DNA of 64,000 bases from a virus, in IMG/VR virus record IMGVR_UViG_3300002855_000209, positions 851-64,850 of that record. One strand, given 5' to 3'. Position numbers and translations under genes: made by a program. Each line of letters opens with the position of its first letter. Within the stretch, counting starts at the first letter, position 1. Shown piece by piece: positions 14,747-41,332 of this stretch. The notes beneath the pieces were generated by a model that saw nothing but the letters and a program-made list of their open reading frames with translations, had not been told where the DNA came from and did not search any database.

Positions 14747-14896
14747 TCATGCTTTTATAGAAGCAATTATTACATCCAACTTCCACATTAAGATTGGTAT
14801 GGAAAACAAAAGAATAAATGCAACTATTGTTTGCCATAAGCCGTACTTTTCAATAGATACTTTCATAAGCTCCACTATTGGTTTAAAATGCTCCAT
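14747..14896 (-). CDS. 49-aa single-TM peptide behind conserved leader (unit A)
   Basis: MEHFKPIVELMKVSIEKYGLWQTIVAFILLFSIPILMWKLDVIIASIKA; AAGGAG RBS; leader hairpin 14939-14972. Confidence 0.6.
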   Translation of the reverse strand: MEHFKPIVELMKVSIEKYGLWQTIVAFILLFSIPILMWKLDVIIASIKA

Positions 14897-15082
14897 ATAG
14901 ATATATCTTCTCCTTAATCTAGCTTTGGTTAAGTTGATAAAAAAACCTCAGTGCGCCAACACTGGGGTTTTTGCTTTTTGATCATAGAAAACTTAACTAT
15001 GAGTTTCCTCCGGCCCGGTTTCCATGTAATAAAAAACCGCCCGAAGGCGGCTGTTGAAAGAAATTTGTTACTTATATAGTTT

Positions 15083-15955
15083 TTACAAAGCTACCCCGCA
15101 AATGTCCTTAGCGCCAGTAGGATAAGTAAACTGCATTTTTGACTTATCTGTAACCAACTGAAGCCCAACCGTTTTACCAGTCAAGGTAGAGTTAGCAAAG
15201 TGGTCTTGATTGATTACTCCCGTATAGCTCATATATTTTAATTTATTTTCCATAATGAGATTCGTATAACCATAGTTCATTCCATTAATGATATAACCAA
15301 CTTGTTTAGTATTCTGGTTTACATAAATACCAACTCTTACTTTTCCATCAGCAGGAACTTGTACTGGATTAGTTGTATTAGCTAAGCTTAAAGGTGCTAA
15401 CTTACCTGTACCATCGGCTTTATAACTTAATCCTAATAAATAAATAGCATCGCCATTCATTACACCAGAATAATTATTACCTTTACTAAATATCACATTT
15501 AATGTGAATTCTGCTCTATTCTGAGAAGAACCAGTAAGAAAAAAACCATATTGGTACATCTGAGAACTAGTACCAAGATTAATTTTTATATTATTTACAT
15601 CAAAAATGAATTCCTGAACAAATATATCTGATGTAGCAATAGTCTTATCGATTAAAGGAACATTATCTGGAGTATCTAACACATACTGTGTTTTAAACTG
15701 CGTATATTTTTTTGAAGCCAGATATAAATCAACATCTTTGTTTGAGTAATATTTGATAAGGTCATAACCTGATTGATTAGCGCTATTAATATTAGCAACT
15801 TGCTCAATATAGCGATAATTGGCTGAACTTCCTCCTTTTGCAGCTTCTAAAGCTTTTAAATCCTGTAGGGTTGCATCAAAGCTATATGTACATTCTGCAA
15901 AAGCACCAGTTACACTACTGAAACCCATTATTGTTGCTAAAATTATCTTTTTCAC
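15083..15955 (-). CDS. Secreted DUF4882-like protein (copy 1)
   Basis: Signal peptide then CTYSFDAT; GKVRVGIYVNQ...GYIING.NYGY; paralogue at 36382. Confidence 0.7.
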   Translation of the reverse strand: MKKIILATIMGFSSVTGAFAECTYSFDATLQDLKALEAAKGGSSANYRYIEQVANINSANQSGYDLIKYYSNKDVDLYLASKKYTQFKTQYVLDTPDNVPLIDKTIATSDIFVQEFIFDVNNIKINLGTSSQMYQYGFFLTGSSQNRAEFTLNVIFSKGNNYSGVMNGDAIYLLGLSYKADGTGKLAPLSLANTTNPVQVPADGKVRVGIYVNQNTKQVGYIINGMNYGYTNLIMENKLKYMSYTGVINQDHFANSTLTGKTVGLQLVTDKSKMQFTYPTGAKDICGVAL

Positions 15956-16073
15956 GGCGTTATCCTGTTTTTATTTTGAACATTTAGTATAAACAAGTCT
16001 CTAAATCATTTGATTAATTCCGACAGATGACAGAAATATATATGAACTATTAAAAAATACCGCCCGAAGGCGG

Positions 16074-16463
16074 TTAACTATTTTGAATATCATCTTTGGC
16101 TTTTTTAACTTCTTTAATTACTTCGACAATCGTCTTGCCTTCTTGTTTATCAATAAAGTTAAAGATCCAACGGACCAGTGCCCAACCAGGAATACCGCAT
16201 ATAAAGAAGAAGCCCCCTAAGGCAATCATTCCCCATACATCAGTAACCCATTCATGAAGTCCCCACTTCACGATAATGAATGAGCCACCAGCTAAACTAG
16301 ATACAACTGTACAAATGAGCCCTACAGCCCACTCTTGAGGTGAGCGTGGCATACGTGTCATCAATACAACTGCTGCAACTAAAGCGACCGCTAAAGTCAC
16401 CATGATTGCCGCACCGTAAAATTTTAAAAGTGCTGTTAGACCACTAGTGGAAACTGGTTCCAT
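16074..16463 (-). CDS. Putative holin
   Basis: Three TM segments and charged C-tail; position between tail genes and endolysin. Confidence 0.7.
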   Translation of the reverse strand: MEPVSTSGLTALLKFYGAAIMVTLAVALVAAVVLMTRMPRSPQEWAVGLICTVVSSLAGGSFIIVKWGLHEWVTDVWGMIALGGFFFICGIPGWALVRWIFNFIDKQEGKTIVEVIKEVKKAKDDIQNS

Positions 16464-16579
16464 TTATATCTCCAAAAATTTTAGACAATAAAAAAGCCCT
16501 GTGCTGTTAAGCAAAGGGCCAAAAGTAAAAAAATTTAGTTTCTATACTTGAATAAAAACCATAAAGTATTTTTATTCAA

Positions 16580-18451
16580 TTAATATAGATATCTTCCAAT
16601 AGCAATTACATCAAAATTGACTGTTGAACTTGTAGAAGAGCTTAAAGCAAAACCAAAAATGTTAGCTGAAGATGCTGTGATATTTTGAGCTTTAGCTGAA
16701 ATACATACATTATCAAGAGATATCGCAACTATAGTCGGTGGTTCAATGAAGGCCTTAGGAAATATCCAATTAAGGTCAGTTGTTTTATATCCGCCCGCAT
16801 GAGCTGTATTAATTGGTACGGTACCACTAATACGATGCCGACAAATCATTGTGCCATCTGCCTGTTGAATCCAAGTACCTGGTGCTCCATCTGTACGAAG
16901 ACCAGATCTATCAAATACTAGCTTACGTGTACCATCTGCAATTTTACTATTAGCGTCTGATGAAATAATTGTTATTTCACCAAGATTAGATTTAGGTCTA
17001 GTACACTGGATATAACTTGGTTTTTGAGCACCTGCTTGAACAGCATTTGATATTAATCTTGTTAAAGTTGGTGGAACTCCTTCTAAAAACTCAAAACCAT
17101 CAATAATAAAGTAGCATTGAGCGCTAGTATAATTAACCGCATTCATTAATCCAATTAATGCACTAGCTTTGCCTATTTTGACATCTTGTAATATAAATCC
17201 AAAAGGCTTTGTATTATATGATGCCGTAACAGATGATGCCCAGTTCATTAGGGAAGCAGCTAAACCACAATCAACAATATAATCTCCAATTGAATAAACC
17301 GGTCCTGAACACTCGGTAACAAAAATTGGTGAACGCACTTCATCCTTATGCATAGTGATTTTGTTTTCAATAGACTTATTATGTCTACCACCTAAACCGA
17401 CCATACCTCTAATAGTACAATTCTTATAGTGAGATTGAGTTGTATTACCATGAAAGTCAGCACAGTGAATCCCAGTATCTACCCCATTCTCTAATATTGC
17501 TTCTTCAATGTATATACGGCGGCAAGGTACACATCCATTTATATTACCTCCTCCTGTGGCTACAGCATGTCTGTACCCAAAACAGTATTTTGGTTTAGCA
17601 ATAATATCTTGACAGTTACTAAAACAAATACCGTAATCAGTTCCAGTAGTTGAATCTCCTTTTTTTATATATTTACCACCCGTAATTCTACAGTTAAAAG
17701 ACCTTTCCAATAAGAATGCATATGATGTACCAACTTTACCCGATAGAGATAGCACCTCCATGTCATTGAATACACTGTCAGCACAATAGGTAACTTTCAA
17801 ACCATATTGATAATCAGACTTAAATTTGATATTTCCTGTGATCCGTAACTTTATTGGTTCTAGCTTAAATACCTTATCCGTTGAAATACCAGTATATGTA
17901 GTTTCTAATTCATCAGTTAATTTAATAGTTGAGCCTTCAACAATGGCAACCCGTTTAATTTCTCCATCTTTATAGTAAGAGCGATACTCACTAAATGAGA
18001 AATCCAATTGATTATGAATAACAATAATATCTTCTTGTTTCAATGTACTAGGTGCTTCTGAAACAATGATTTGTCTATCGTTGGGCAATGGAGCGCTAGC
18101 TATATTACCAAGTAAAGTCAATGATCCTGAAAATGAAAATGCACCATTAATCGATTCAAATGTAATATTACCTTCTATCTCAATTGTCTTATTTACTCCA
18201 TTTACAACAATGTTCCCAACATGTTTATAAATGCTTCCTGAATAGTCATAGAACTTTGTATTATTAGCAATCATATGATCAAAGCAATTTTTAATAGCTT
18301 GTGTATCATCTGCAATACCATCACCTACTGCTCCAAACATTTTTGGATTAACAAAATTATTAATAGCCAAGTTTAAGTTGTTTTGTTCAGTATTTATTTC
18401 ATGCTGACTCTTATTACCATCAATTACATCTATTGCATTTACTGTAGTCAT
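16580..18451 (-). CDS. Tailspike/capsule depolymerase (beta-helix) with tail-fibre-type C-terminal domain
   Basis: VNPKMFGAVGDGIADDTQAI pectate-lyase-3 entry motif; beta-helix-like repeats; C-terminal WIQQADGTMIC...WIFPKAF..PP; likely ATG at 18451. Confidence 0.8.
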   Translation of the reverse strand: MTTVNAIDVIDGNKSQHEINTEQNNLNLAINNFVNPKMFGAVGDGIADDTQAIKNCFDHMIANNTKFYDYSGSIYKHVGNIVVNGVNKTIEIEGNITFESINGAFSFSGSLTLLGNIASAPLPNDRQIIVSEAPSTLKQEDIIVIHNQLDFSFSEYRSYYKDGEIKRVAIVEGSTIKLTDELETTYTGISTDKVFKLEPIKLRITGNIKFKSDYQYGLKVTYCADSVFNDMEVLSLSGKVGTSYAFLLERSFNCRITGGKYIKKGDSTTGTDYGICFSNCQDIIAKPKYCFGYRHAVATGGGNINGCVPCRRIYIEEAILENGVDTGIHCADFHGNTTQSHYKNCTIRGMVGLGGRHNKSIENKITMHKDEVRSPIFVTECSGPVYSIGDYIVDCGLAASLMNWASSVTASYNTKPFGFILQDVKIGKASALIGLMNAVNYTSAQCYFIIDGFEFLEGVPPTLTRLISNAVQAGAQKPSYIQCTRPKSNLGEITIISSDANSKIADGTRKLVFDRSGLRTDGAPGTWIQQADGTMICRHRISGTVPINTAHAGGYKTTDLNWIFPKAFIEPPTIVAISLDNVCISAKAQNITASSANIFGFALSSSTSSTVNFDVIAIGRYLY

Positions 18452-18511
18452 TTTTGTACCTTTAAAAGTTTTAATAAATAAAAAAGCACCCTTCATAGAG
18501 TGCTAATAACA

Positions 18512-21500
18512 TTAAACTGTCTGTAAGATTTTTCCTCCATTTATCATTTTAGTTGTTAGAGGTGCTACACCGACAATTGCGGTACCACCCGCACCCGGTT
18601 GACCTTCAGTTGTTCCATGGTAATTCCAGTTCCATGTTCCATCATTTATGGATTTGGTACCACGTTGGCCCCAGCCACCACCATCACCTGATAATGGCGA
18701 TCCATAGCGGTCATTTTGAGTTCGGTAACCTTTACCAGGTACTGAAGCTTCAGCATCAGTACCCTTAACCACCATAAAATAGCCAGTAAAGTACCAACGC
18801 CAGTCCTGAGTATCATTGTAAATTGGCTGACCCGTCATAACCCGTCCAAAAGGTGCACCTGCTCCACCAGGTACTCCTTGAACTCCATATGTTAGTTCAG
18901 TGTAGATACCACTCGGTGTAGCCCCGCCTCCAGAACCACCTCTAGCTAAAGTGCCTCCGTCAATAATTAGATTCAATTTGCTGTGTCGGTTCATTAAACC
19001 GGGTGCGCCTTGGAACCCATCACGGCGAGTTTTGGTGAAGTTGTAATCTGGATCACTAGACCACGCACCGAATGCAAGATGAGGCAAACCTCCATCACCT
19101 CCACGCCCAACCACAGAACCTTTAATCGTAAGATTTACAGTAAGACCAGGAGGAAACTCTCCTGTATCAATTGCTGGCAGTTCTGGTGCTGCAGGTACAA
19201 TAAACTCTTGTTTTGCTGGACTAGAGTTATAGTCAAACTTATATACCATTCTTGTTTCTGGTCGAAGTGAACTGGAACTCGAAACCAAAGCACCGGCTTC
19301 AACAATAAAGCTAATTTCACCGGTTATTGGTAGGTCGCCTCGTTGCATCTGATATAAGCGAGCTAGATTTAGGTCTAGCTGGTCATATCGAATGTAAATT
19401 GGTGAATCATCAACAGGCACATCAATAAAGTCTTTATCGTTGAGGTAATACCGAATATCGTAATTTACTGCCGTAATGGTATTAGAAAACTTATCAACCG
19501 GATCTTTTTTAGCAACCAAGTAAGGTAATGAGTCCTTTGTATCGTCATTAACAACTGTATAGATCGTATTAACAAAATCATCTGGACTTAGTTTTAAAGC
19601 TCCGTTGGGCAACCGTCCTAAAACTACTTTGTTCTTAGCAGATCCGGCAGTAACAGGAAGTAGATCAACGGTACCATCTCCCATTTGCAAATAAATCACG
19701 TAGCTCTTGCCAGCTATAAAATCTACGTCGTGGCTTAGAGTGAGAATTAAGCCCTCTTGTTTCACCACATCACCGCTTTGATGGATGCCATTTCGATAAT
19801 CCGCTACAGCAATACGGTCCCGTAATACCAATAATTCTGATTCAGGAGCCGCATCAAAAGTAATCGATTTACGCTGGAAGCGGAGCTTGTTCCAAAGCCG
19901 GTACGCATTAAAACGGGCTTGCCATTTGTTACGCACACCAACAGATTTTACTTCTTTGGGGTTTTTGACTCCTTTATCCGGTAAATATATATTGATACGG
20001 CTATCATCGGCCGGATCCGTATATTCATAGATCAACCCATCATAGTCATCCATCATTCCAAGCGTAAGATCATGCTTATAACTATCCGGAATGATATTCC
20101 TGAAGTTAAACAGCAACACCGAATTATCGGTCGGACGTTCAAAGTAGATCTTTAGCTTGTTGTTCTGACGATATGCTGTACAAAACACAGCATCACAAAG
20201 ATTAGTGACCAATTCTTCAAATGAAAGATTGGTGTCATCAATCGTCGTACAGAACTCGGCTGCTAGAGGTGTACCAAAGTAATCGACAATATCGTTATAA
20301 GTACGATAGATGTTTTCAACATCAATCTCGTCGACCGTACGGCGGCCAATCTTGTCATCCAGTGCCATCGATACCAGTGCATCTGCAAAGCTTGAAGTTG
20401 GAAACAACTCTGCTGTCATCGCTCCATTTTTATAGGTTGGCAACATCCGCTGAAGATCGAAATTGATCTTGCGCGACTTAACAGATAAAGCTCCAGTCGT
20501 TGCATATGTACGTGCACGGAAAACTGTTTCATGTTCATACATTGTGCTTTGCAATGGATAAGCACCGTATAGCGCTTGCCATTTCACTTCATCAACTACG
20601 GTTGTCACTGCTGGAGTTGGTGTTAATCGGCGAGCACGTACACTACAGCGCCCCTGAAATGTGACCATATCGAGCGTTGCACCAACAGTTTGCCGCGACT
20701 TAGCCGAACCCTTGAGAATGATCTGCTTCAGCATTGGATTACCAATAGCTGCGCCAGACTCATTCACTGGAGTTACTTCAACTTCAATCGTGACATTAAC
20801 AGCTGCCTGATTGCCTCCTGAAGAGACTGTATAAAGTCCATTATTCGCGACAAAGTTAAAGATGACGCGACTACGTTCAAGGTTGTCCAGTATAAACGGG
20901 CCGATCCACTTCTCGCCAATAGATGAAAGCTTTGGAGATATAGCACCTGTTTGCTGGTTTGTGAGTTCTTTTAGCTTTAACCAGTTCGGATTTACTGCTG
21001 CCGGGTTAGACAAAGCCATACGGTCATCAGCAACGGATAAGACGCTGTACGTACCGTTTAAATCGTAGGTTTGACCGTTATAAGTAAAAGAAGCATTAGT
21101 GATTTCAACTCGGTCATTGCTGACAAACTTAGTCGTTAAATCGGTATTGTTAGCAGCTGCTCGCAGGATCTCGTTTGGGTATGCAAATTGAAGATAATTG
21201 ATGCCTTCCAGACTTTGAGTATCAGCTGGTCGCAATATCTGGCCATTCACTGAGTTTTGATGCTGAACAGTTAAAGGCGGTATAGTAATTTCACTACCAA
21301 GCGAAAAATATGGTTGTCCAGAAACAATATCTACACCTGGTCGAAAGACCTCGACCGATGCACCTGCAATATCAACAATATTGGTTTCACCATCGTAAGC
21401 ATCTTTAATGTGATAGTAGCCGCGACCAATACACCCCACAAGATGCTCAACCTCGACGTTGTTTTCATAGACCTTGTAAGGAACTGCAATTAAATCAGGC

Positions 21501-21949
21501 GTATCCCAAGCAGCCCCATAAATATCAGCGATACGGCCATTCACCCGCATTTTATTTTCGCGATTTGAAAGCTCGTTATTTGCAGATGAGGATTGGTTGT
21601 TATTCTGAGTGGTTTGGGCAATTGACGGCGCGGGCATTAAAAATGCAATCGCCACACTTAAAACAATAGAAACGATAGCAGCAATAAGCGCAGGCATACC
21701 TTTCGGATTTTCAATCACAATGAAAGTGCCAGGTAAGAAATCAAGCTGCTTTAAGTCGTGAGCATTCTTAGGTGTAACTTCATTGGCAAAAGAGATCTCC
21801 GCATGATCCATGTTGCTTGAAGTATGAAAAATACGGACATGCTCAGGCAAATATTCATATTTTGAAGTAAGCCATTGCCCGATAGTTTCGGCATGCTCAA
21901 TTGTCTTCTCTTCAGACAAAGGATCCTGTTTATAAATAATCTTAATCAT
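18512..21949 (-). CDS. Tail tip/host specificity protein (lambda J-like)
   Basis: 1145 aa after the NlpC-like gene; RIADIYG..PDL motif; Gly-rich C-terminal domain. Confidence 0.8.
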   Translation of the reverse strand: MIKIIYKQDPLSEEKTIEHAETIGQWLTSKYEYLPEHVRIFHTSSNMDHAEISFANEVTPKNAHDLKQLDFLPGTFIVIENPKGMPALIAAIVSIVLSVAIAFLMPAPSIAQTTQNNNQSSSANNELSNRENKMRVNGRIADIYGAAWDTPDLIAVPYKVYENNVEVEHLVGCIGRGYYHIKDAYDGETNIVDIAGASVEVFRPGVDIVSGQPYFSLGSEITIPPLTVQHQNSVNGQILRPADTQSLEGINYLQFAYPNEILRAAANNTDLTTKFVSNDRVEITNASFTYNGQTYDLNGTYSVLSVADDRMALSNPAAVNPNWLKLKELTNQQTGAISPKLSSIGEKWIGPFILDNLERSRVIFNFVANNGLYTVSSGGNQAAVNVTIEVEVTPVNESGAAIGNPMLKQIILKGSAKSRQTVGATLDMVTFQGRCSVRARRLTPTPAVTTVVDEVKWQALYGAYPLQSTMYEHETVFRARTYATTGALSVKSRKINFDLQRMLPTYKNGAMTAELFPTSSFADALVSMALDDKIGRRTVDEIDVENIYRTYNDIVDYFGTPLAAEFCTTIDDTNLSFEELVTNLCDAVFCTAYRQNNKLKIYFERPTDNSVLLFNFRNIIPDSYKHDLTLGMMDDYDGLIYEYTDPADDSRINIYLPDKGVKNPKEVKSVGVRNKWQARFNAYRLWNKLRFQRKSITFDAAPESELLVLRDRIAVADYRNGIHQSGDVVKQEGLILTLSHDVDFIAGKSYVIYLQMGDGTVDLLPVTAGSAKNKVVLGRLPNGALKLSPDDFVNTIYTVVNDDTKDSLPYLVAKKDPVDKFSNTITAVNYDIRYYLNDKDFIDVPVDDSPIYIRYDQLDLNLARLYQMQRGDLPITGEISFIVEAGALVSSSSSLRPETRMVYKFDYNSSPAKQEFIVPAAPELPAIDTGEFPPGLTVNLTIKGSVVGRGGDGGLPHLAFGAWSSDPDYNFTKTRRDGFQGAPGLMNRHSKLNLIIDGGTLARGGSGGGATPSGIYTELTYGVQGVPGGAGAPFGRVMTGQPIYNDTQDWRWYFTGYFMVVKGTDAEASVPGKGYRTQNDRYGSPLSGDGGGWGQRGTKSINDGTWNWNYHGTTEGQPGAGGTAIVGVAPLTTKMINGGKILQTV

Positions 21950-22304
21950 AGTAACTGACCCGACTAAACCCCATTGCTTTAATGACGTCTTCAGCTAAAT
22001 AAGTGACTCCACTCTCCATCAGGTGTAAAACCTTCTGCCCACGAAAAAGCCCCACATGCGGGGGCTTATTTCGTTGTCTTGGATGGAAGGCGACTATGCA
22101 GCCTTCCTTGGGCATGGGCAGCGGATTTAAGAGTTTTAATCGTGAGACTTTAAATTCGATATGGCCTTTAGGTTGCATGAACAAATCCAAAGCTTCACTC
22201 CGGTCTACTCCATATAGGTCTAAAGCAGCTTCATGTGCAAAGTGAACACAGTTGTAGTGCTCTTCGTCGTATTGCTTATCAAGTAAATGATCATGACTTT
22301 TCAT
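21942..22304 (-). CDS. Tail tip assembly protein (NlpC/P60, lambda K-like)
   Basis: YNCVHF, HVGLF, VLHL motifs; position. Confidence 0.7.
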   Translation of the reverse strand: MKSHDHLLDKQYDEEHYNCVHFAHEAALDLYGVDRSEALDLFMQPKGHIEFKVSRLKLLNPLPMPKEGCIVAFHPRQRNKPPHVGLFRGQKVLHLMESGVTYLAEDVIKAMGFSRVSYYD

Positions 22305-22807
22305 ACAGCCCCCTTCAGCCCACTAAATCGATCTAATGAAAAGATGTCACCAGTTTTGGAGGTATTTAAACGAGGTGATTCAGCTTTAAATGTCACAGCT
22401 TTATGGTTCATTGAAACACCTGCAAGTTGGAGGCCTAGCAAATAATGGATTGGTGTATTCAAGTTATCTGAACTATAAAGACGGTAATTGACAGTAGGTT
22501 TCACATCCGCAAATTGGCCTTCTAAAACTCGCTCAAACTCATCCGGCAATATATCTCCAAGACCAGAAACTGAGACAGTTAAAGTCTGGTCCAGATCACC
22601 TAACATTCCGGATCTTTGAATCGTTAATGGCAAATATTCATAGTAGAACTGACCTGACCCTTCTTTGTGCTGTACATAGACACCTCGATCATCATTACGA
22701 ACAACACGATAAGTATTTAAAAAAGATGGGTGTGATAACTCAATACACTCCAGTTGATAGATATCGACTTTACGATTGAGAAAGAACTTGGCGTATTCGT
22801 TATCCAT
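22301..22807 (-). CDS. Minor tail protein (DUF1833-like)
   Basis: LECIELSHPSF motif; position after distal tail protein. Confidence 0.7.
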   Translation of the reverse strand: MDNEYAKFFLNRKVDIYQLECIELSHPSFLNTYRVVRNDDRGVYVQHKEGSGQFYYEYLPLTIQRSGMLGDLDQTLTVSVSGLGDILPDEFERVLEGQFADVKPTVNYRLYSSDNLNTPIHYLLGLQLAGVSMNHKAVTFKAESPRLNTSKTGDIFSLDRFSGLKGAV

Positions 22808-23205: not shown

Positions 23206-23266
23206 AACTTTCCTTCAGGCAATAAAAAACCGCCCGAGGGCGGTACCAAAAGATAAAAACTATTTA

Positions 23267-23428
23267 TCAATCATCATCTTTATCTTTCCAAATTGCTTTA
23301 ATTAATTCAGGAGATTTCCACGCAAGAATGCATAGAAGCACTGAGATTAGTAAAAATATTAACATTCCAATAGGTAAACTTGATGTCATTTTGATCAATC
23401 CTGAAATTGCTATGATATAATCGGTCAC
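23267..23428 (-). CDS. 53-aa single-TM peptide behind conserved leader (unit B)
   Basis: GTG start at 23428 after AAGGAG; VTDYIIAISGLIKMTSSLPIGMLIFLLISVLLCILAWKSPELIKAIWKDKDDD. Confidence 0.6.
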   Translation of the reverse strand: MTDYIIAISGLIKMTSSLPIGMLIFLLISVLLCILAWKSPELIKAIWKDKDDD

Positions 23429-23434
23429 AAGTAG

Positions 23435-23499
23435 TTTCTCCTTAACTTTCGCTGGTTGAGTTGAATTAAAAAGCTCATGATTGCAGTCATGGGCTTTTT
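23435..23499 (-). repeat. 65-bp leader repeat (hairpin + RBS), copy B
   Basis: 62/65 identical to 41268-41332 by manual alignment. Confidence 0.85.
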
Positions 23500-23672
23500 C
23501 TTTAGGTACTAAAAAAGCCGACTTGTTAGATCGGCTTCGCATTGTTAAATCCTAAAACTTATAAATAGGATTTAAAACTTATTGATTTTGTATATAACTC
23601 ACATACAAATGTCAGATAAAAAAACATCCGAAGATGATTGCTCTTTTTCCTCTTATACGTGTACTTCTAAAA

Positions 23673-32324: not shown

Positions 32325-32394
32325 ACCTACCTCTGAAATTTAGAAAATAAAAAAGCCCATGGGATTCCATAGGCTTAAGGTTTCATGATTTGAA

Positions 32395-33312: not shown

Positions 33313-33364
33313 TTATGGTTCTCCAAAATTTTGGTAATAAAAAACCCGCTGATTTAGCGGGTTA

Positions 33365-34462
33365 TTAAAGTGTTTCATGTGTATTTGAGATTTCAGGCGG
33401 TTCAACACCAGCCAATGCTGCAGCTACTGCTTCAGATAAGTTGGTAGGCTGAAAATCAACGGGTGTTTCACTCCCTGGTTCCTCAGGCTCTGATTCGGGT
33501 TCTTCATGCAATCGAATATCAATCCAGCGGGATTCAGGGATATCTACCGGATTATCGAAATCAGGAACAATTGAGGCTGTCTCGATATCGAACTTTTTCT
33601 TGTAGGTTTTTACTGAAATGTCTCCATCTTCAAGCTGCTCATAAGACACAGCTACAACAACATTGCCGTTAGCATCCTTCGGCATTTCGATATACCAGCC
33701 TTCTTTAGCAAAACCCAACGAGTCTTTAATCAGGTAGTCACCAACATCTAATTTTTCAAAACTGATTGGCTGTTTTGAAGCATCTTCATTCAGTTCAAGT
33801 GAATCAGCAAACAGTCTTGCAATCGGTGAAGCTGCTTTATAAACCCCGTTAGAATCGACAGTAAAGCCTTTTGAACTCAGTTCGCCTGTATTAGCCACAG
33901 TAACCAACTTCCCACTTGTGGCACTATTATCAGTGGCATAAACAATATTGTTCTTACTTGTATAAACAATTTGCTCGGTTTTACTAAGATTTCCAGTAGA
34001 AGAGTTATAACTCCATGCGATTACTGCCATGTTATTGGCACGAGTTGAGGTATAATACGGTAAGAATAACTCCGTTCCAGTAAGACCTCCACGTGTAATC
34101 ACAATTGAAGGTCCATAACCTGCAACAAACGGATTGGCATATATATTGGAGGGTGCATTTTTAAAACGTGTTTTTTGAGTACCAGACTTATAAACTAAAT
34201 CCAAATCTGTCTCCGGTTCAGATACTGGTGAAGCTCCATATCCAAAATCAGCAACACCGTAAGGACCAAAAGTTGCAACCTCTCCATTTCCAGTACCGAC
34301 ATTTTTTGTGGCCGCTGTACCGAGTCCTGTTACTTGAGACCAATCTGGCGTTAAATTTGGAATACCTGAGGCAAAAGGAAGCATAAACTGCCGCTTTCCT
34401 TGAGCAGAGTTATATTGAAAGGGCCGATGATCCCATGAAAATTTAAAAACTAGATTTGCCAT
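33365..34462 (-). CDS. Tail fibre-like protein
   Basis: GLGTAAT..VGT fibre-shaft motif; KAASPIARLF...WIDIRL fibre C-terminal motif. Confidence 0.55.
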   Translation of the reverse strand: MANLVFKFSWDHRPFQYNSAQGKRQFMLPFASGIPNLTPDWSQVTGLGTAATKNVGTGNGEVATFGPYGVADFGYGASPVSEPETDLDLVYKSGTQKTRFKNAPSNIYANPFVAGYGPSIVITRGGLTGTELFLPYYTSTRANNMAVIAWSYNSSTGNLSKTEQIVYTSKNNIVYATDNSATSGKLVTVANTGELSSKGFTVDSNGVYKAASPIARLFADSLELNEDASKQPISFEKLDVGDYLIKDSLGFAKEGWYIEMPKDANGNVVVAVSYEQLEDGDISVKTYKKKFDIETASIVPDFDNPVDIPESRWIDIRLHEEPESEPEEPGSETPVDFQPTNLSEAVAAALAGVEPPEISNTHETL

Positions 34463-34812
34463 TATGCTGTTACTCCATCAATTACTTGGAATGTCAGAGT
34501 TTCAGTATGTTGAATTACTCCACCTACAACTGCTTTGATATCCATCTGGCATAGACCCAAAGGCCATGCAACAGTGCTGGCAGTTGATTTCACGTTCAAC
34601 CATCCTTTCTGAGTCGCTTGGCTCAGTGCGGCGCAAGTTAATGTTGCTACAGCGGTACCATCCAAAGTTTTGACCTGAGAAGTAAAGGTATAACCCGTTA
34701 AATCAATCGCTCGACGTACATCATTGGCTGGATATTGCAGGGCATCATCAGTATCGACCAACTGCAAATTTAAGTTAAATGTGTCACCACGCTTAAAGAC
34801 ATGATTGCTCAT
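34462..34812 (-). CDS. Virion-associated protein (BppU N-terminal-like)
   Basis: FKRGDTF...IDLTGYTFTSQVK pattern; coupled to fibre-like gene. Confidence 0.45.
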   Translation of the reverse strand: MSNHVFKRGDTFNLNLQLVDTDDALQYPANDVRRAIDLTGYTFTSQVKTLDGTAVATLTCAALSQATQKGWLNVKSTASTVAWPLGLCQMDIKAVVGGVIQHTETLTFQVIDGVTA

Positions 34813-34907
34813 AAGTGATTCCTATAGACATAAAAAAACCACCGATGAGGTGGTAGTGAATATGAAGTCAAAAAACCGCCTATTAGCGGTCATTTAATTA
34901 AAGAGAA

Positions 34908-35126
34908 TTAGGGTTTGTAATCTAGATCAACACTTACTCCAGTAACAATATTGTGTTTACTTCCACCAATACTATTTATATTGGCCAATCGAATATTCAC
35001 ATCAGAAACACATAGCTTATTTTCACTTTGCCATTTGCTCAGCTCTACAGACATAACATCCTCAAGATGTCGTTCCAGTTCTTGCCGTTTAATTTCGATT
35101 TCTTCTAAAGTCAGCATACATGACAT
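34908..35126 (-). CDS. Phage hypothetical protein
   Basis: 72-aa ORF co-oriented in tail cluster, bracketed by terminator-like hairpins. Confidence 0.55.
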   Translation of the reverse strand: MSCMLTLEEIEIKRQELERHLEDVMSVELSKWQSENKLCVSDVNIRLANINSIGGSKHNIVTGVSVDLDYKP

Positions 35127-35182
35127 TTCAATTCACCTTGTTTTGTTCAAATTATTCACTAAATGCACCACTAAACTTATCA

Positions 35183-35557
35183 TTATTGTTGTTTTGGCTC
35201 ATTTTTAGCTCTCAAACATTCCTCCTCCACTTGGCGTGGAAAATTCACCATAGCAAGCATGCTATTTTCATCTTTTTCGCTTACTTCAGGAAAATCATAG
35301 ACCTTATCTACCGCATCACTCACATCATCTCTATAATCGTCACCCAAAAAACTTGTAAAAACTAATTTTATTGCATCCTTACTAACATTAGCCCACTTGG
35401 CGTTAAAAGTAGAAAAAGCAACTTTACCAATGTTCTCACAATATATTCCATTAGATATTTGGATAGGCGTAGGTGCAGTTTCTGGAATAGCAAACGCATT
35501 GCTCGATAAACATAATAATAGTGCAATAAATAGGCTTTTACTTTTCATGATTTTCAA
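35183..35557 (-). CDS. Secreted moron protein
   Basis: Signal peptide ending AFA; overlaps upstream stop by 4 bp. Confidence 0.55.
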   Translation of the reverse strand: MKIMKSKSLFIALLLCLSSNAFAIPETAPTPIQISNGIYCENIGKVAFSTFNAKWANVSKDAIKLVFTSFLGDDYRDDVSDAVDKVYDFPEVSEKDENSMLAMVNFPRQVEEECLRAKNEPKQQ

Positions 35558-35952
35558 TTAACTCTAAATTGTACTGATACATTGTACTGGATAAAATCGC
35601 TATCATTGCCTGCATTGATGGCTTGCCCCTGCAAACACTCCAGATGATCAATAATGAAATATTCGAAATGAGCGAGTAATGCATCGCTGAGCTCGGTAAT
35701 CGCTTTCTCTCCAGTATGAAGCCGATCGAAGCATTGGATCATGATATTACCCGTTCGTCGGGTGCAAGGTTTATCCGCAATGCCCGAGGTAAAACTCGGA
35801 CCACCTGCAATTGTTAAACGGCACCATATGCCGTCCTTTGGCACCTTAAAATCCGGAGCATTTGGATACTGAATTCTGTCTTGGGCAATACCTGTAAAGC
35901 TTTGCATACGGCTGATAATAGCTTGCCTTGTCTGCTCTAAAGTCATTGCCAT
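35554..35952 (-). CDS. Tail terminator protein
   Basis: IQYPNAP.F; position after HK97 gp10-like gene; likely start MAMTLEQ at 35952. Confidence 0.7.
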   Translation of the reverse strand: MAMTLEQTRQAIISRMQSFTGIAQDRIQYPNAPDFKVPKDGIWCRLTIAGGPSFTSGIADKPCTRRTGNIMIQCFDRLHTGEKAITELSDALLAHFEYFIIDHLECLQGQAINAGNDSDFIQYNVSVQFRVN

Positions 35953-35953
35953 T

Positions 35954-36334
35954 CTAGCCACCATACTTTTGAGAAATATAAGTAAACGTAGTGCTGTAAA
36001 TACCTTGCGGTGCTTGATCAGACCAGCCATTTTCTAAGCGTTCAGCATATGGCTGGTTGTTTTGTATGTAGACCAAATTGCCGAGCTTAAACTTCACAGC
36101 TTGAATAGCAGCATCCTGAACGGCGTTTGTTTCTGGTCCACGTACCCCATAGTCACCAGATCCAATCGATACAATATGGGAAGCACGATAAACACCCGTA
36201 TCAACTGGACTTGAAACAACTAATGATTGCACTGTATCCATCGTAATTTTCTTTACCTTATCTTCTGCTGCTTTAGAGACATCAAGACTAAAACTAGTCG
36301 GTTTTTTTCCCTTCCACCCCATAAATTTCTCCAT
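35954..36334 (-). CDS. HK97 gp10-like tail completion protein
   Basis: SPVDTG..RAS and NN.PYA.RLE.GWS.QAP.G motifs. Confidence 0.8.
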   Translation of the reverse strand: MEKFMGWKGKKPTSFSLDVSKAAEDKVKKITMDTVQSLVVSSPVDTGVYRASHIVSIGSGDYGVRGPETNAVQDAAIQAVKFKLGNLVYIQNNQPYAERLENGWSDQAPQGIYSTTFTYISQKYGG

Positions 36335-36381
36335 TAAAAAACCACTCAGATAAGAGTGGTTTTTTCTTTTTCAAAAGGTTC

Positions 36382-37257
36382 TTAATTAGCGCTTCCACAA
36401 ATATCAGTAGTACCTGTTGGATATGTAAACTGCATATTTGCTTTATTAGTAATTAACTGGACTGAAACAGTTTTACCTAGAAATTTAGAATTAGGATTTG
36501 GTGATTGTATACCCGCCCCTTTAAAACCAATACTTTTTAAAGAGTTTTCCGTAAGTAAGTTAAGGTATCCATAATTTGTACCATTGATGATATACCCCAT
36601 TTGTTTACTAACCTGATTAAAATAAAGACCTACTCTAACTTTGCCATCTGTTGGCACCGTAACAGGGATTACCTTGCGATCAAGCTCCTTTGCAACTACT
36701 GAACCGGAACTATCTCTTTTAGTACTTGCTCCAGTGAGTGTCACATAACTTCCATCAGCATAATTTGCATCTTTATTAGATAACCCATAACCAAGATCTA
36801 AACTAATTTCATTTTTTAAATTAGAAGCTCCTAATATATTGAAGGCTAGCTGTTGAGTTTCATGGCTATCTCCTAATGCGATGTTTTTAATATTTAAAAC
36901 ATCAAATATAAACTCTGCTGCTATAATATTTGTTCCTATTACTGATTTATCAACTAAAGTAGTCTGAATAGAAGGTAAACTTATCATTTTACCGGAAGTT
37001 ACAATTTGGTCAGCTGGTGTACTTCCTATATAACCAATTGTTGCCGTACCTTTTTGCTCAGCAATACTAATTGGAGACATTAATTTAATCGGCCTTCCTC
37101 CTGCTGCATTTACCGCATCGACTTGAGACTGAGTTGCATCAAAACTATAAGTACAGGCAGCATAAGTATTTACTGAAACTCCACTGCTGATTAATAAACC
37201 CAAAATAATTTTATTCATGTAATCTTCCTTTTTTATTTGAGCAAACAGTATAGCCAA
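36382..37257 (-). CDS. Secreted DUF4882-like protein (copy 2)
   Basis: ACTYSFDAT...GKVRVGLYFNQ...GYIINGTNYGY...MQFTYPTG..DICG shared with 15083-15955. Confidence 0.7.
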   Translation of the reverse strand: MAILFAQIKKEDYMNKIILGLLISSGVSVNTYAACTYSFDATQSQVDAVNAAGGRPIKLMSPISIAEQKGTATIGYIGSTPADQIVTSGKMISLPSIQTTLVDKSVIGTNIIAAEFIFDVLNIKNIALGDSHETQQLAFNILGASNLKNEISLDLGYGLSNKDANYADGSYVTLTGASTKRDSSGSVVAKELDRKVIPVTVPTDGKVRVGLYFNQVSKQMGYIINGTNYGYLNLLTENSLKSIGFKGAGIQSPNPNSKFLGKTVSVQLITNKANMQFTYPTGTTDICGSAN

Positions 37258-37452
37258 GCATATAAAAAGATTGATTAAAAACTGACAAGTGGTAATTTTT
37301 ATTTCTTTAAAAACTTTTTCTTATTTAACTTCTAACCAGCGTGTACTGCACATGTTGAAATGGAGAGATATGCCATAAGGGAATGTAATCTGTACTTATC
37401 ATTCACACTCCTAAATTATGGTCAATAAAAAACCCGCCGAAGCGAGTTAGAA

Positions 37453-38112
37453 TCACCTATCAGTAACTTTTAACGTTATTGCCTCTTCATTCAAATTATT
37501 AATCTTTTCTATTACTTCATTGATTTTTTGATCAATTTCATGAAAGTTAGGAACGTAGATAGAAATTTCATGATCGGTATTCATTTGAAACTCTTTATCT
37601 AACATATAAATATCACCAATAATACTTTTAAGTTTACCGGTAATTTCTTTAGCCAAATTTATAAAATTATCGATATTAATGTTAGTTTTCTTAATTCGGT
37701 TCATGTCACCTACAACTGCGGATACTCTCATTAATAATATATTCTTTGTATTATTAATTGCTAATCCTCGCTTTTCATCATTCTTTTCACCTGCGCAACA
37801 ATTGCTATAGAAATCCATAATCGCATACATAATTTGGTTTAATTCTTTTATAACTGCTTCACTCTCACTTTCTAACTTTTTTTCTAAGTGTTCCTTTCTC
37901 CAATCACTAAAGACTAGCCATGCTATCGCAGGTGCTAAAAAATATGCCAACAATGTTAAAGAATCTCTTAATACAACATAAAAATCTTTGTATTCAATAG
38001 TTTTTTTAAGATCAGAGTTTGTAATAAATCCCATAATAAAAAAAGATAAACAAAACATGCATAACCAAAAAATTGTGAGTTCTGTTTTTGCTTTTAATGT
38101 TGATTTAGTCAT
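37453..38112 (-). CDS. Membrane moron protein (2 TM + helical domain)
   Basis: AT-rich insertion among neck genes; two N-terminal TM segments. Confidence 0.6.
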   Translation of the reverse strand: MTKSTLKAKTELTIFWLCMFCLSFFIMGFITNSDLKKTIEYKDFYVVLRDSLTLLAYFLAPAIAWLVFSDWRKEHLEKKLESESEAVIKELNQIMYAIMDFYSNCCAGEKNDEKRGLAINNTKNILLMRVSAVVGDMNRIKKTNINIDNFINLAKEITGKLKSIIGDIYMLDKEFQMNTDHEISIYVPNFHEIDQKINEVIEKINNLNEEAITLKVTDR

Positions 38113-38149
38113 ATATCCCCCTATTTTAGAAGGATATTAGACCAAGTAT

Positions 38150-38518
38150 TTAAACCTTCCTCAACTGACATTTCCAAATAGTTGCAGCCGGATCTTGTTG
38201 AATATGAATAACTCTGAATGAACCTGATGTTGTTACCCATTCATCATCTATTTTAAGGGCCATAGACACTTCATTTTGAAGTACGGTCGCTTTCTTATCT
38301 GTGGCCAGTACTCCAAGCGTTTGTATTTCATATTGACTGTATGAGCCAAATAGAACGCCACGACCCGTATAGTTTTCTTTAACTTCAACATAAGTTTCTG
38401 TCTTAGGATCCCAATTTGATTTAGTGACTCGCTCACACGTAAATGTATGAACGGCGTCTGCTAAATCTTCATTAAATGCTTCAGCAACTTCTGCCTGAAT
38501 TTCTTCACGTAAGCCCAT
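38150..38518 (-). CDS. Head closure/head-tail joining protein
   Basis: Position in neck cluster; IHIQQDPAAT.WKCQLR. Confidence 0.6.
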   Translation of the reverse strand: MGLREEIQAEVAEAFNEDLADAVHTFTCERVTKSNWDPKTETYVEVKENYTGRGVLFGSYSQYEIQTLGVLATDKKATVLQNEVSMALKIDDEWVTTSGSFRVIHIQQDPAATIWKCQLRKV

Positions 38519-38898
38519 TAAATTTTCCTGACAAAAAATACACGTTTACGTTTGCAATATGGCTTGATCAAATCAAGAATAAACTGCTCAGTTGCCGTTA
38601 GTTTTACCAATCCGTCTTGATATTCTGTTTCCGTCTCAACCGTATCAGCCTTTACTTTCTTGCGCTTTAATGCCTGTTCCTGACCTTGGTATAACTCCCC
38701 TTTCATGATGCCCTTGATGATCTGATAAGAGGCTGTTTTCAGGGGCTCAGGAACCAGAGTGACATCTTCATAAGGTTTAACATTACGTGCTAATAGATAA
38801 GCTTCTGACATCTGAAGGTATTGAGCCTTATCACTGGCAGATAAAGCATCAAAGCCTTCAACATGTTCTATCGCTTCTTGTTCAGTGATAAAGCTCAT
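38518..38898 (-). CDS. Head-tail connector (DnaT-like ssDNA-binding family)
   Basis: SFIT..EA start, VPEPLK.A, KVKADTVETEY; position after capsid. Confidence 0.65.
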   Translation of the reverse strand: MSFITEQEAIEHVEGFDALSASDKAQYLQMSEAYLLARNVKPYEDVTLVPEPLKTASYQIIKGIMKGELYQGQEQALKRKKVKADTVETETEYQDGLVKLTATEQFILDLIKPYCKRKRVFFVRKI

Positions 38899-38901
38899 GG
38901 T

Positions 38902-39228
38902 TTATTCCTTTGGAATTAATGCTAAAAGTTCGTCTTTTTTAGCGCCTGATTCAAATACAATGCCTTTTTCAGTTAAAACAGCACGAAGCTCATCAACTTT
39001 AAGCCCTGCGTAGTTGATTGGTTGAACTTCATTAGACTTTTGATCACCTTCAGGGTTCTGACTACCTTCACCAGATTCAAGCTCAGCAATACGTGCTTTC
39101 ATTGCCTCAGGATCATTCTGAAAGGCAATAAACTCACCTTTCAGTGTTGCCAGTTGTTCTGCGATTTCAGTTACTTTTGCTTGTGTCATTTGACGTTCTC
39201 TCATGCGGTTAAATGCGGATAGGCCCAT
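38902..39228 (-). CDS. Phage protein with C-terminal HeH/LEM-like motif
   Basis: LKVDELRAVLTEKGIVF...AKKDELLALI. Confidence 0.65.
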   Translation of the reverse strand: MGLSAFNRMRERQMTQAKVTEIAEQLATLKGEFIAFQNDPEAMKARIAELESGEGSQNPEGDQKSNEVQPINYAGLKVDELRAVLTEKGIVFESGAKKDELLALIPKE

Positions 39229-39270
39229 TGATTTATCTCCAAAAGAAAAGGCGGATAATTCCGCCCGTCT

Positions 39271-40221
39271 TTATTTAACTTTGTGCTTGAACGCCACAAT
39301 ACGAATCTGCTTTGGATCGTAGACGCGTTCCCAGTTGGTATCAGATGAAAGACCAGCATTGTTCGGTGCAACGCCCATTGCACCAGCCCATTTGATGCCA
39401 CGAGGATGCAAGACAAAGTGACGGCGGTTAATGAGAATGTCAGAACCTGCTAGGCTGTCTCGGTCAGTCTCAACCCCTACAGGAGCACCGATATCCTGAA
39501 AGCCGATAGCGCCTTGCCCGAACAGGAATGATGTGAATACATCACCATCAACTGGCATACCGTCGTCGACAATCACACGGCGATCCATGAAGGTTTTGTA
39601 GAGCACCACGCCATCTGCATCACGTACGGTTTCAATCAAGCCCTGTTTGGCTAGTGCAGCCATGGTTGCTGAATGCATAGCAATAGCCGTTAATTTATCG
39701 ACTGCATCCCCTAGCTTGTATGAGGCATCGATAAATGAAACACCATCAATAACTGCCGCAGCTCCAGTACCAGCAGAGATATCATGTGTATTACTTGCCA
39801 TACTTGTAGAACCAAATACACCTTTAAGCGTATTTACGGTAAATCCTTGAAACTCACGTGCCCAGTAATCTGCAACCAGATCACCCACCGCACCAAGTGG
39901 ATCGTCACCAGATAAAGCTTTTGCAAGATCATTGGCACCCCATGCCTTACCACGTGCATGCAAAATGGCAATATCCTGACCCGCAGCAATGTTGTTTACG
40001 GTTAGAGGCGTCGCATCTGATAGTACTTCAGATTCCCCGTCCAAATCGTTCCAGAACGGGATATTTACGGTTGAACCGCCTTGTGTTCCGAAAGCAACTT
40101 CGACATCCAGCTCACCTACAATGCCCGACTGCCATAAGGCAGATTTCTTGGCAGTTTTATTTAAAACGTACTGAGTGAATAACTCGGGTACGATTACATC
40201 AGCAATTTTTGTCTCAGCCAT
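39271..40221 (-). CDS. Major capsid protein
   Basis: 316 aa directly after scaffold; GGSTVNIPFWNDLDG, HARGKAW. Confidence 0.85.
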   Translation of the reverse strand: MAETKIADVIVPELFTQYVLNKTAKKSALWQSGIVGELDVEVAFGTQGGSTVNIPFWNDLDGESEVLSDATPLTVNNIAAGQDIAILHARGKAWGANDLAKALSGDDPLGAVGDLVADYWAREFQGFTVNTLKGVFGSTSMASNTHDISAGTGAAAVIDGVSFIDASYKLGDAVDKLTAIAMHSATMAALAKQGLIETVRDADGVVLYKTFMDRRVIVDDGMPVDGDVFTSFLFGQGAIGFQDIGAPVGVETDRDSLAGSDILINRRHFVLHPRGIKWAGAMGVAPNNAGLSSDTNWERVYDPKQIRIVAFKHKVK

Positions 40222-40234
40222 TAGGCTTTACTCC

Positions 40235-41032
40235 TTAAAGATTAATACCGTGTTTTGCAGCCAGCTCTTTAGCTAGCTGTGGATTTTCATTTCGTAATTG
40301 GGCAAGTTTGGTCAGGTTCACCGAACCGTCTGGCTTGGTAATATCGACCTGTCCTTTTGTATTGGTACTACCTGGTGAACCTGTTCCATTTGCTTTAGGC
40401 CAGAAATAAGGCTTTTGCTCACGTAAGGTTTCGACCCATTCTTTTGGTGATAACGCCGTCTTACCGTCTTTACCAATGATCACTTCGCCTTGGGTATCGA
40501 CTGCTACGGCCTTGCCGTTTTCATCGAGTACAAATTTAGAATGGGCAAGAAATGCGATATCTGCTGTTGCTTCTGGCAAAGCCTCCAGTTCAAGAGCAGC
40601 TTGTACAATCTGACTCTGAACAACCGACTGCTTGAACTTGTTGGCATAAGCTTCTGCTTTATCAGCTCGTTCTTTTTCGGCATTGAGTAACTTGTCATGC
40701 TGTTCACGCATCTTTTCGGTACGCTTCTGGATGACTTCACTCACCTTACCTTCCGCAATTAATTTTGCATCTTCATCCTGTTCCAGTTGGGCAAACAGTT
40801 TTTTGACTGTTTCAGGATCAATACCTTCATACTGTTTTTGAAGCTTCTGGAGTTCCTGCTTTGCTGTCTTGACGGCATCACGCTCGCTTTGAAGTGCAGT
40901 TTTAAGGCCCTTCGGATCTTCGTAGCCATCCAGATCAAGGCGAAACTTCCCGTCTTCCTCGACATACAGGCTACGATGTTCTTCTTTAACGTCTTCCAGT
41001 GAATCAACAATAAATGGCAGTGACATGTTCAA
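40235..41032 (-). CDS. Capsid scaffolding protein
   Basis: Coiled-coil ORF immediately upstream of capsid. Confidence 0.75.
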   Translation of the reverse strand: MNMSLPFIVDSLEDVKEEHRSLYVEEDGKFRLDLDGYEDPKGLKTALQSERDAVKTAKQELQKLQKQYEGIDPETVKKLFAQLEQDEDAKLIAEGKVSEVIQKRTEKMREQHDKLLNAEKERADKAEAYANKFKQSVVQSQIVQAALELEALPEATADIAFLAHSKFVLDENGKAVAVDTQGEVIIGKDGKTALSPKEWVETLREQKPYFWPKANGTGSPGSTNTKGQVDITKPDGSVNLTKLAQLRNENPQLAKELAAKHGINL

Positions 41033-41110
41033 ACCTCTCGTTTGATTAAGTTGAGCCTTATCTCAAGGCAATAAAAAACCGCCCGAAGGCGGTACGTTGT
41101 AAGAGTGCGA

Positions 41111-41260
41111 TTATTTCAGTGCCAAAATAATCGCGATAACAATGATTCCTAAGGCTAAGCCCAAATTAGTAATTGCCTGCATTAGGCCTGCACGATCAGC
41201 ACCTTTCTCGCTCATTTTTCCATCTACCTTTAACTCAGTTTTTGATGTATGCTTATGCAC
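41111..41260 (-). CDS. 49-aa C-terminal-TM peptide behind conserved leader (unit C)
   Basis: GTG after AAGGAG; VHKHTSKTELKVDGKMSEKGADRAGLMQAITNLGLALGIIVIAIILALK; internal ATG at 41215 is an alternative start. Confidence 0.55.
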   Translation of the reverse strand: MHKHTSKTELKVDGKMSEKGADRAGLMQAITNLGLALGIIVIAIILALK

Positions 41261-41267
41261 AGAGATA

Positions 41268-41332
41268 TTTCTCCTTAACTTTCACCGGTTGAGTTGAATT
41301 AAAAAGCTCATGATTGCCGTCATGGGCTTTTT
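41268..41332 (-). repeat. 65-bp leader repeat, copy C
   Basis: 62/65 identical to 23435-23499. Confidence 0.85.

Follow-up and report, generated by a model that had tools for sequence, protein, structure and literature searches.

Cis-encoded antisense RNAs and small phage membrane proteins offer the closest described parallels to the locus considered here. The promoter of SymR lies inside the symE coding sequence, sar of phage P22 starts inside the 5' end of its target gene and covers the target's ribosome-binding site (RBS), and morons of the HK97 gp15 type are small inner-membrane protein genes in phages. In a review, sar is listed as an inhibitor of anti-repression (PMC5415839). We analyzed a window of 64,000 nt (the whole stretch of DNA under study, positions 851 to 64,850 of IMG/VR virus record IMGVR_UViG_3300002855_000209), which makes up most of a 70.9-kb provirus record and carries three units, A, B, and C, in each of which a conserved leader precedes a small membrane-peptide gene. 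Our sequence comparisons suggest that, on balance, each unit is a membrane-peptide gene together with its own cis-antisense small RNA (sRNA) gene on the opposite strand. An earlier note on this DNA had proposed RNA-level control of such peptides, and control by antisense RNA is the best reading of the comparative evidence.

The three units that the earlier note had delimited are all present where it placed them, on the minus strand. Each runs in the order A-run, hairpin, T-run, TCAACTYAACC, 7 to 8 nt, the Shine-Dalgarno (SD) block TTAAGGAGAA, 9 to 13 nt, start codon, open reading frame (ORF), and terminator, the last being either of the ACCGCCYTCGGGCGGT type or of the form GCCACC...GGTGGC. Exact TCAACTYAACC is found in the window at the three units only, and TTAAGGAGAA occurs four times against 0.30 expected (four were reached in 0 of 100 shuffles). 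The leaders of B and C are, as described before, identical at 62 of 65 positions (95%), while their peptides are unrelated (no BLASTP alignment of B with C). The loops also read as given before, with TTGGCG in A, CTGCAA in B, and CGGCAA in C, but the TTGGCG-loop hairpin described ahead of ant could not be located; what is present upstream of that gene is a pair of hairpins whose loop, ACTGCAAT, is of the B type. Two features had been overlooked: a further ordinary terminator lies upstream of the hairpin in each unit, so that the hairpin is not required for ending the upstream gene, and the unit hairpin itself is bidirectional.

With respect to RNA structure, the comparison of leaders points to the terminator-like hairpin as the terminator of a predicted antisense sRNA and to TCAACTYAACC as the complement of one arm (GGTTRAG) of its first stem-loop (SL1). 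The other arm of SL1 is CTTAAYY, which overlaps the anti-SD; GGTTRAG itself is complementary to the conserved 10-mer. In the plus orientation, 99.4% of cells are standard pairs across 20 base pairs and 36 distinct leaders (720 cells). Among these helix cells, 98 are G-U on the plus strand and correspond to C-A mismatches in the peptide-sense RNA, which is ~86% paired; the conserved C-A mismatch of the sense-RNA hairpin is a G-U wobble in the antisense RNA, and the same holds in SL1. The leaders have minimum free energies of -24 to -29 kcal/mol on the plus strand versus -14 to -18 on the sense strand, and the window units reach z scores of -4.3 to -4.5 versus -1.7 to -2.3. When divergent copies from other species are included (39 distinct rows), 96% of cells remain paired and compensatory changes are seen in 13 of the 20 pairs, including five of the seven in SL1, with shuffled and slid-register controls far below. 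Judging from these alignments, both helices are conserved with compensatory changes, and full pairing is reached in the predicted plus-strand transcript only. Furthermore, the T tail on the sRNA strand has at least five T in 35 of 36 copies and is uniform (TTTTTGCTTT); the T run on the peptide strand has at least five T in 25 of 36 and is degenerate in the other 11, as TTTTCAATT or TCTTCAATT.

All peptide families have a plus-strand -10 box that falls within codons 2 to 4 of the peptide gene, 14 to 18 nt upstream of TTCTCCTTAA (for example TGATATAAT in B, TGCTATAAT, TGATAAAAT, TGTTAAAAT, TAAAAT in A, and TATGCT in C). Scored up to 24 nt upstream of the start-codon complement, with 360 ORF starts from the same loci as controls, TAnnnT is present in 12 of 12 peptide families (43% of control starts) and the extended form TGnTAnnnT in 8 of 12 (6.7% of control starts), indicating that promoter-like boxes occupy a fixed place in unrelated peptide families. 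In addition, the synonymous substitution rate (dS) is 0.12 to 0.26 in codons 2 to 12 and 0.63 to 0.98 in the rest of the ORF, a four- to fivefold reduction at equal nonsynonymous rate (dN; four families). The predicted promoter of the sRNA of unit A falls inside codons 3 to 12, within this region of low synonymous change. Leaders differ by a Jukes-Cantor distance of 0.10 to 0.16, compared with an ORF dS of 0.53 to 0.79, and change four to five times more slowly than synonymous sites. The conservation footprint begins exactly at AAAAAGC, which is the T (U) tail of the predicted sRNA, and is deepest over codons 1 to 12. These rates indicate additional nucleotide-level constraint on the leader and on codons 1 to ~12.

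We propose that the minus strand of a unit would supply a small single-pass membrane peptide behind a strong SD, and the plus strand a cis-antisense sRNA of 75 to 85 nt, with its -10 box (usually extended, TGnTAnnnT) within peptide codons 2 to 4. The 5' part of the predicted sRNA is complementary to the peptide start codon and SD and would be followed by SL1 and a Rho-independent terminator. Made in the lysogen, the sRNA would pair with any peptide mRNA and occlude the SD and start codon; its full complementarity to that mRNA, from the 5' untranslated region through the SD to the start codon, should block ribosome binding. The duplex would probably be marked for RNase III, and a potentially membrane-damaging peptide would be kept off. 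Since there is no conserved sense promoter and the sense-strand hairpin is weakened, the peptide would be expected only when antiterminated late transcription passes this imperfect hairpin and outnumbers the sRNA, whose part in the lysogen and at the start of infection would be that of a safety catch. Predicted pairing between the sRNA of one unit and the leader of another amounts to -50 to -58 kcal/mol for B with C and -30 to -35 with A, and on these energies the B and C sRNAs could cross-regulate each other, and A partly. It is a good deal more doubtful whether one antisense-RNA "gate" is reused by at least a dozen unrelated peptides in such a way that a resident prophage, through its sRNAs, also silences late membrane peptides of related phages that share its cell or superinfect it, as would follow from leaders that are nearly identical between cassettes and phages. 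If true, this would amount to RNA-based cross-immunity or lysis-timing interference between temperate Acinetobacter phages.

The cassette is not confined to this provirus. An IUPAC pattern scan with CAACTYAACC-N5-11-TTAAGGAGAA matched 86 viral contigs and ~9 Acinetobacter genome contigs, nearly all Acinetobacter matches having a hairpin upstream and a hydrophobic ORF of 39 to 61 aa downstream, and the same leader stands ahead of at least 12 families of small membrane peptides in about 80 viral contigs. The earlier note had asked for a covariance model; the one that we built from 36 distinct leaders (R1) finds exactly three copies in the provirus and copies in 40 of 151 Acinetobacter species genomes, and the leaders match no Rfam family at gathering score. 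Most of the divergent R1 matches have a small hydrophobic ORF that starts at model positions 1 to 3 on the other strand, new peptide families included. The pattern scan and the covariance model performed far better than short-query blastn of the leaders against the phage collection, which returned only one to five records.

Hairpin subtype and peptide family are freely shuffled, with the B peptide occurring behind a TTGGCG hairpin in locus L024 and the C peptide behind three hairpin types. A single peptide family can occupy different slots; these are the gap between the holin-like and endolysin genes, the one separating the tape-measure gene (TMP) from the minor tail gene, and the positions just ahead of TMP and of the scaffold gene. 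The slot between TMP and the minor tail gene holds only a terminator in PhabP_R1, a 195-aa lipoprotein gene in LPAB65, and unit B in the window. Given this shuffling, the several slots per peptide family, and the empty or otherwise filled slot in PhabP_R1 and LPAB65, the compared sequences indicate that the cassettes are real, mobile, and moron-like, and the idea of a portable cassette for small membrane peptides is borne out, the unit moving as a whole among a few late-operon slots. Near-identical terminators, ACCGCCYTCGGGCGGT followed by TTTTTTATTRCC, recur at gene boundaries (window 15035-15052, 16059-16074, 23229-23244, and 41078-41093, and many related loci); this family is possibly a homology patch for cassette exchange on the 3' side. 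Leaders that are otherwise nearly identical can differ by an inversion of the hairpin's loop and upper part (TTGGCG/CGCCAA, TTGACG/CGTCAA, and TTAGCG/CGCTAA; loci L005, L009, L017, L023, L034, L040, L044, and L059 versus close homologues), a pattern that indicates repeated small hairpin-mediated inversions.

Peptides A, B, and C each contain one strongly hydrophobic 17-residue window (mean Kyte-Doolittle hydropathy 2.3 to 3.1). A and B give no BLASTP alignment with each other, but both touch phrog_8452 weakly (E = 0.018 and 5.4e-5, respectively), by which they are possibly distantly related; C belongs to a separate family, phrog_12997. PHROGs labels family A as "moron ... membrane protein". 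No Pfam match was obtained for any of the peptides at E <= 1, Hok_Gef (PF01848) included, and a protein atlas search with peptide A returned "hypothetical protein" clusters only. With dN/dS of 0.10 to 0.36 across families, the peptides appear by their substitution pattern to be real genes under purifying selection; candidate roles would be membrane toxin, lysis-timing modulator, or exclusion of incoming phage. Variants of the peptide part were also observed. Cassettes of the MPEIIAVI type (L001 1576-1838, phage Attikon1; L003 1572-1837, phage TCUAN1) carry a second peptide gene of 35 aa that overlaps the first at ATGA and is related to the unit A peptide in the C-terminal half of the latter (phrog_35629, E = 2.8e-6), and the Attikon1 annotation includes a 55-aa ORF, probably spurious, that runs over the hairpin on the opposite strand. 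In L040 (~1233-1330), a 1-nt deletion cuts the ORF of a C-type cassette after nine codons but leaves the sRNA-like element whole (92 bits). An internal Met16 behind AAGGTAGA is conserved in C-type peptides and is a possible alternative start.

Several points weigh against the presence of an antisense sRNA gene. The search of sequencing runs gave only three metatranscriptome or multiple displacement amplification runs (5 to 6% of words) and no RNA-seq of a carrier strain, and the element is absent from the ATCC 17978 prophage, which is covered by existing differential RNA-seq. The -35 boxes are weak (3 to 4 of 6 positions), and units A and C lack the TG extension at the -10 box; N-terminal D/E-F/Y/I-I residues can lead to AT-rich codons that mimic -10 boxes, and binomial P values overstate independence, since the peptide families are partly kin. 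Constraints on translation initiation, or gene conversion affecting the leader block, can likewise lower synonymous change at gene starts. As for the helices, hairpins of the TCUAN1 type, which lie ~10 nt after the upstream terminator, pair equally well on either strand, variant L034 has the wobble on the sense side, and the alignment of divergent copies (A4), which underlies the count of compensatory changes, was fitted to the structure of the model. Lastly, no conserved -35/-10 for a peptide mRNA was found upstream of the hairpin in ~70 contexts, at least five of them unrelated, which makes a classical post-segregational-killing role of the type I toxin-antitoxin (TA) kind doubtful. The hairpin loop TTGACG was considered as the -35 of a sense promoter and rejected, as a suitably spaced -10 is lacking and homologues have the loop in inverted form.

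These points have to be set against other explanations of the conserved block. It is unlikely, in our judgment, that the element works on the sense strand only, with the hairpin as an insulating or partial terminator or a 5' stabilizer, CAACUYAACC as an unstructured A/C-rich translational enhancer, and a strong SD, the whole block being kept for high late expression and as a homology patch for cargo swaps, like the PeSL cassettes of T4-type phages. Almost all late genes here do end in an intrinsic terminator followed by TTTTTTATTRCC, an SD, and the next start codon, a similar TCAACTTAATC lies ahead of the scaffold gene after the terminator of unit C, and the shuffling of hairpins and peptides between slots is in line with such a patch; PeSLs themselves demonstrate that modules can be exchanged by way of conserved motifs that contain a terminator (PMC2839356, PMC4122927). 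A sense-strand element nevertheless leaves unexplained why the C-A mismatches of the sense RNA in 98 of 720 helix cells are G-U pairs on the other strand, why compensatory changes keep SL1 in the plus orientation only, why extended -10 boxes stand at one position in unrelated ORFs, and why synonymous sites in codons 2 to 12 are so much more conserved than the rest; the degenerate T run on the sense side also speaks against it.

The mechanism favored by the earlier note, in which a trans RNA of the P1 C4 or P4 CI kind, or the RNA of one cassette, pairs with distinct leader loops and co-controls the peptides and the antirepressor, seems to us very improbable. Many loops do contain a YUNR-like UUGR, a kind of motif that matters for antisense recognition, the predicted sRNAs can cross-pair with the leaders of other units, and the two hairpins ~300 nt upstream of the Ant gene share the 8-nt loop ACTGCAAT of unit B on different stems, which leaves a small opening for trans effects. 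However, Rfam gave no C4, CI, or sar match even at permissive E-values (E <= 5), ACTGCAAT is only mildly enriched in the window (seven occurrences against 3.7 expected), and the loops track neither peptide family nor slot, the cargo being shuffled. All loops belong to one family (TTGNCG or CGNCAA) that is present in both orientations in close homologues, and such inversion would abolish recognition by a fixed trans RNA. Hardly credible at all is a reading at the DNA level, in which the strand-specific fold would mark a single-stranded DNA recombination or insertion site for cassette mobility, resembling the bottom-strand hairpins of integron attC, and not an RNA gene. The mobility of the cassettes between slots, a left homology boundary that coincides with the hairpin, the tolerance of G-T wobbles in folded DNA as well, and loop inversions suggestive of DNA-level hairpin dynamics would suit it, but no dedicated recombinase travels with the cassettes, each cassette has one element and not a flanking pair, and the promoter boxes, T tail, and SD-centered complementarity are left unexplained. 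The predicted parts of a peptide gene with an antisense sRNA gene opposite its start are listed for each unit in Table 1.

Table 1. Coordinates of the three cassettes in the window, with predicted sRNA features
Feature	Coordinates	Strand	Details
Unit A peptide gene	14747..14896	-	49 codons (49 aa), ATG start, one transmembrane (TM) helix at residues 24-40, phrog_35629, family dN/dS 0.10
Unit A SD block TTAAGGAGAA	14908..14917	-	From motif count
Predicted sRNA-A promoter	14862..14889	+	-35 TTCATA 14862-14867, 16-nt spacer, -10 TAAAAT 14884-14889
Predicted antisense sRNA-A	14896..14979	+	~84 nt; model R1, 98.2 bits; fold -24.1 kcal/mol, z -4.48 (sense strand -16.9, z -1.75)
sRNA-A helices (predicted)	SL1 14913-14919/14927-14933; terminator SL2 14941-14953/14960-14972	+	SL2 followed by tail TTTTTGCTTTTT
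Terminator closing unit A	14711..14726	-	Endolysin gene next
Unit B peptide gene	23267..23428	-	53 codons (53 aa), GTG start (ATG in the homologue in L024), TM helix at residues 20-36, acidic KDKDDD tail
Unit B SD block	23436..23445	-	From motif count
Predicted sRNA-B promoter	23391..23421	+	Extended -10 TGATATAAT 23413-23421; weak -35 (TTGATC or TGATCA) 23391-23397
Predicted antisense sRNA-B	23428..23503	+	~76 nt; model R1, 78.4 bits; fold -24.8 kcal/mol, z -4.26 (sense strand -14.6, z -2.31)
sRNA-B helices (predicted)	SL1 23441-23447/23454-23460; terminator 23468-23481/23486-23499	+	
Terminator closing unit B	23229..23244	-	Common to the 5' region of the next tail gene, a region constant in phages without the cassette
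Unit C peptide gene	41111..41260	-	49 codons (49 aa), GTG start, hydrophilic N-terminus, C-terminal TM helix at residues 32-48, phrog_12997, family dN/dS 0.12
Unit C SD block	41269..41278	-	From motif count
Predicted sRNA-C promoter	41223..41253	+	Weakest of the three; -10 TATGCT 41248-41253, TCTACC 41223-41228, 19-nt spacer
Predicted antisense sRNA-C	41260..41340	+	~81 nt; model R1, 90.6 bits; fold -26.4 kcal/mol, z -4.37 (sense strand -15.8, z -1.65)
sRNA-C helices (predicted)	SL1 41274-41280/41287-41293; terminator 41300-41314/41319-41333	+	
Terminator closing unit C	41078..41093	-	

Over long stretches, the window is ~82 to 83% identical to LPAB65 and Ab105-2phi, which are lambda-like temperate Acinetobacter siphoviruses. 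The late genes begin at ~50.5 kb and extend on the minus strand to 14.1 kb, and all three cassettes are found on that strand within the late operon of this lambda-like Acinetobacter prophage. Around unit A, we observe an endolysin gene (14140-14685, minus strand; GH108 and PG_binding_3) and a candidate holin-like gene (16074-16463, minus strand), whose 129-aa product (phrog_1024, unknown function) has several hydrophobic stretches and ends in a charged tail. In related phages, the phrog_1024 gene and the endolysin gene adjoin, often with a peptide cassette between them. Peptide A had been considered as a holin on account of its place just before the endolysin gene, which is unlikely; the 129-aa multi-TM protein is the better candidate, since it is the conserved endolysin neighbor in other phages and the cassette is inserted between the two.

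In the head-gene region, a two-gene antirepressor insert (Ant286, 42647-43507; Ant179, 41414-41953) is flanked by long AT-rich non-coding stretches (43871-44246 and 41954-42646), and the middle of this region is an unusual place for an immI-like module. The two ACTGCAAT-loop hairpins (42243-42270 and 42286-42312) are located in the 693-nt non-coding stretch 41954-42646, upstream of the Ant gene at 41414-41953, and the second of them is a bidirectional terminator; the hairpin region 42243-42312 may exert antisense or attenuator control of ant. Elsewhere in the window, at least seven GTMCCNTTTTTGGDAC-like repeats with 18-nt spacing (58851-58991) lie inside a 313-aa ORF (58331-59272), and they look like replication-origin iterons within a replication-initiator gene.

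If the sRNA is real, it would represent a previously unannotated RNA family, not in Rfam, and Acinetobacter phages would have their first sizeable system of the type I TA or sar kind on record. It would be a compact antisense safety catch with which many different small membrane peptides can be combined and which can change its place in a phage genome. Copies are present in roughly a quarter of the sampled species genomes, often several per prophage, and annotation pipelines overlook or miscall the peptides and predicted sRNAs, as the probably spurious ORF in Attikon1 exemplifies. The genus is of clinical importance, and these phage peptides are candidates for a role in lysis timing, in exclusion, or as toxins; the ~120-bp block from promoter to terminator may serve as a portable translational off-switch. 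We found no description of the cassette in the literature on Acinetobacter prophage sRNAs and type I TA systems, and the motif strings are absent from the supplements of two sRNA catalogues. The "group I (C4-similar)" sRNAs of Kröger 2018 are 100 to 250 nt long and form a different family, and PMC11472050 contains nothing on prophages.

Compared with known systems, the cassette fails all family-membership tests run (Pfam, Rfam), the sole near-match being RF02278, the Betaproteobacteria toxic small RNA of Rfam. The plus strand of unit C aligns over the whole 64-position model of that family, with a CU-rich anti-SD 5' end, a short hairpin, and a terminator, but scores 22.9 bits against a gathering score of 50 and is not a member; RF02278 comes from another phylum-level group, and the RNA predicted here is cis-antisense to a specific gene. 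Neither is the cassette a member of the P1/P7 C4 or P4 CI families, with no Rfam match and a loop orientation that is not conserved. The PeSL cassettes of T4-type phages resemble it in that a short conserved stem-loop block borders variable small ORFs and that one block is combined with unrelated cargo, suggesting recombination at the block (PMC2839356, PMC4122927). A PeSL, however, consists of a terminator and an early promoter on the sense strand in lytic myoviruses, whereas the promoter-like boxes and RNA structure described here are antisense and the hosts are temperate siphoviruses. Like morons, the cassettes are extra genes inserted between conserved tail or lysis genes, with presence/absence polymorphism among related phages and a downstream terminator; unlike them, they have a predicted antisense RNA gene where an own sense-strand promoter was not found.

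The likeness to type I TA pairs such as symE/symR, hok/sok, and aapA/isoA is broader. The peptides are small, hydrophobic, and single-TM (39 to 61 aa across families; 49, 53, and 49 aa in the window, below the ~60 aa usual for such toxins), the predicted antisense RNA of ~80 nt has a single-stranded 5' part, an internal stem-loop, and an intrinsic terminator, and the cassettes reside on a mobile element. SymR likewise is a cis-encoded RNA whose gene faces the 5' end of the target (PMC1891008). The differences are that there is no sequence or profile kinship (no Pfam Hok_Gef and no Rfam Sok, SymR, or Sib match, so that the cassette does not belong to Hok/Sok), that a toxin promoter of its own with a stable mRNA has no counterpart in the ~70 contexts compared, the gene lying inside a phage late operon between terminators, and that one conserved antisense RNA, as predicted, serves at least 12 peptide families. 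P22 sar is likewise an antisense RNA of ~70 to 80 nt from a temperate phage; its target is an antirepressor and not a membrane peptide, the leaders have no Rfam match to it, and the present cassette is mobile, with three copies in this prophage. By analogy with these two systems, we infer that the cassette would work like a type I TA pair or like P22 sar/ant.

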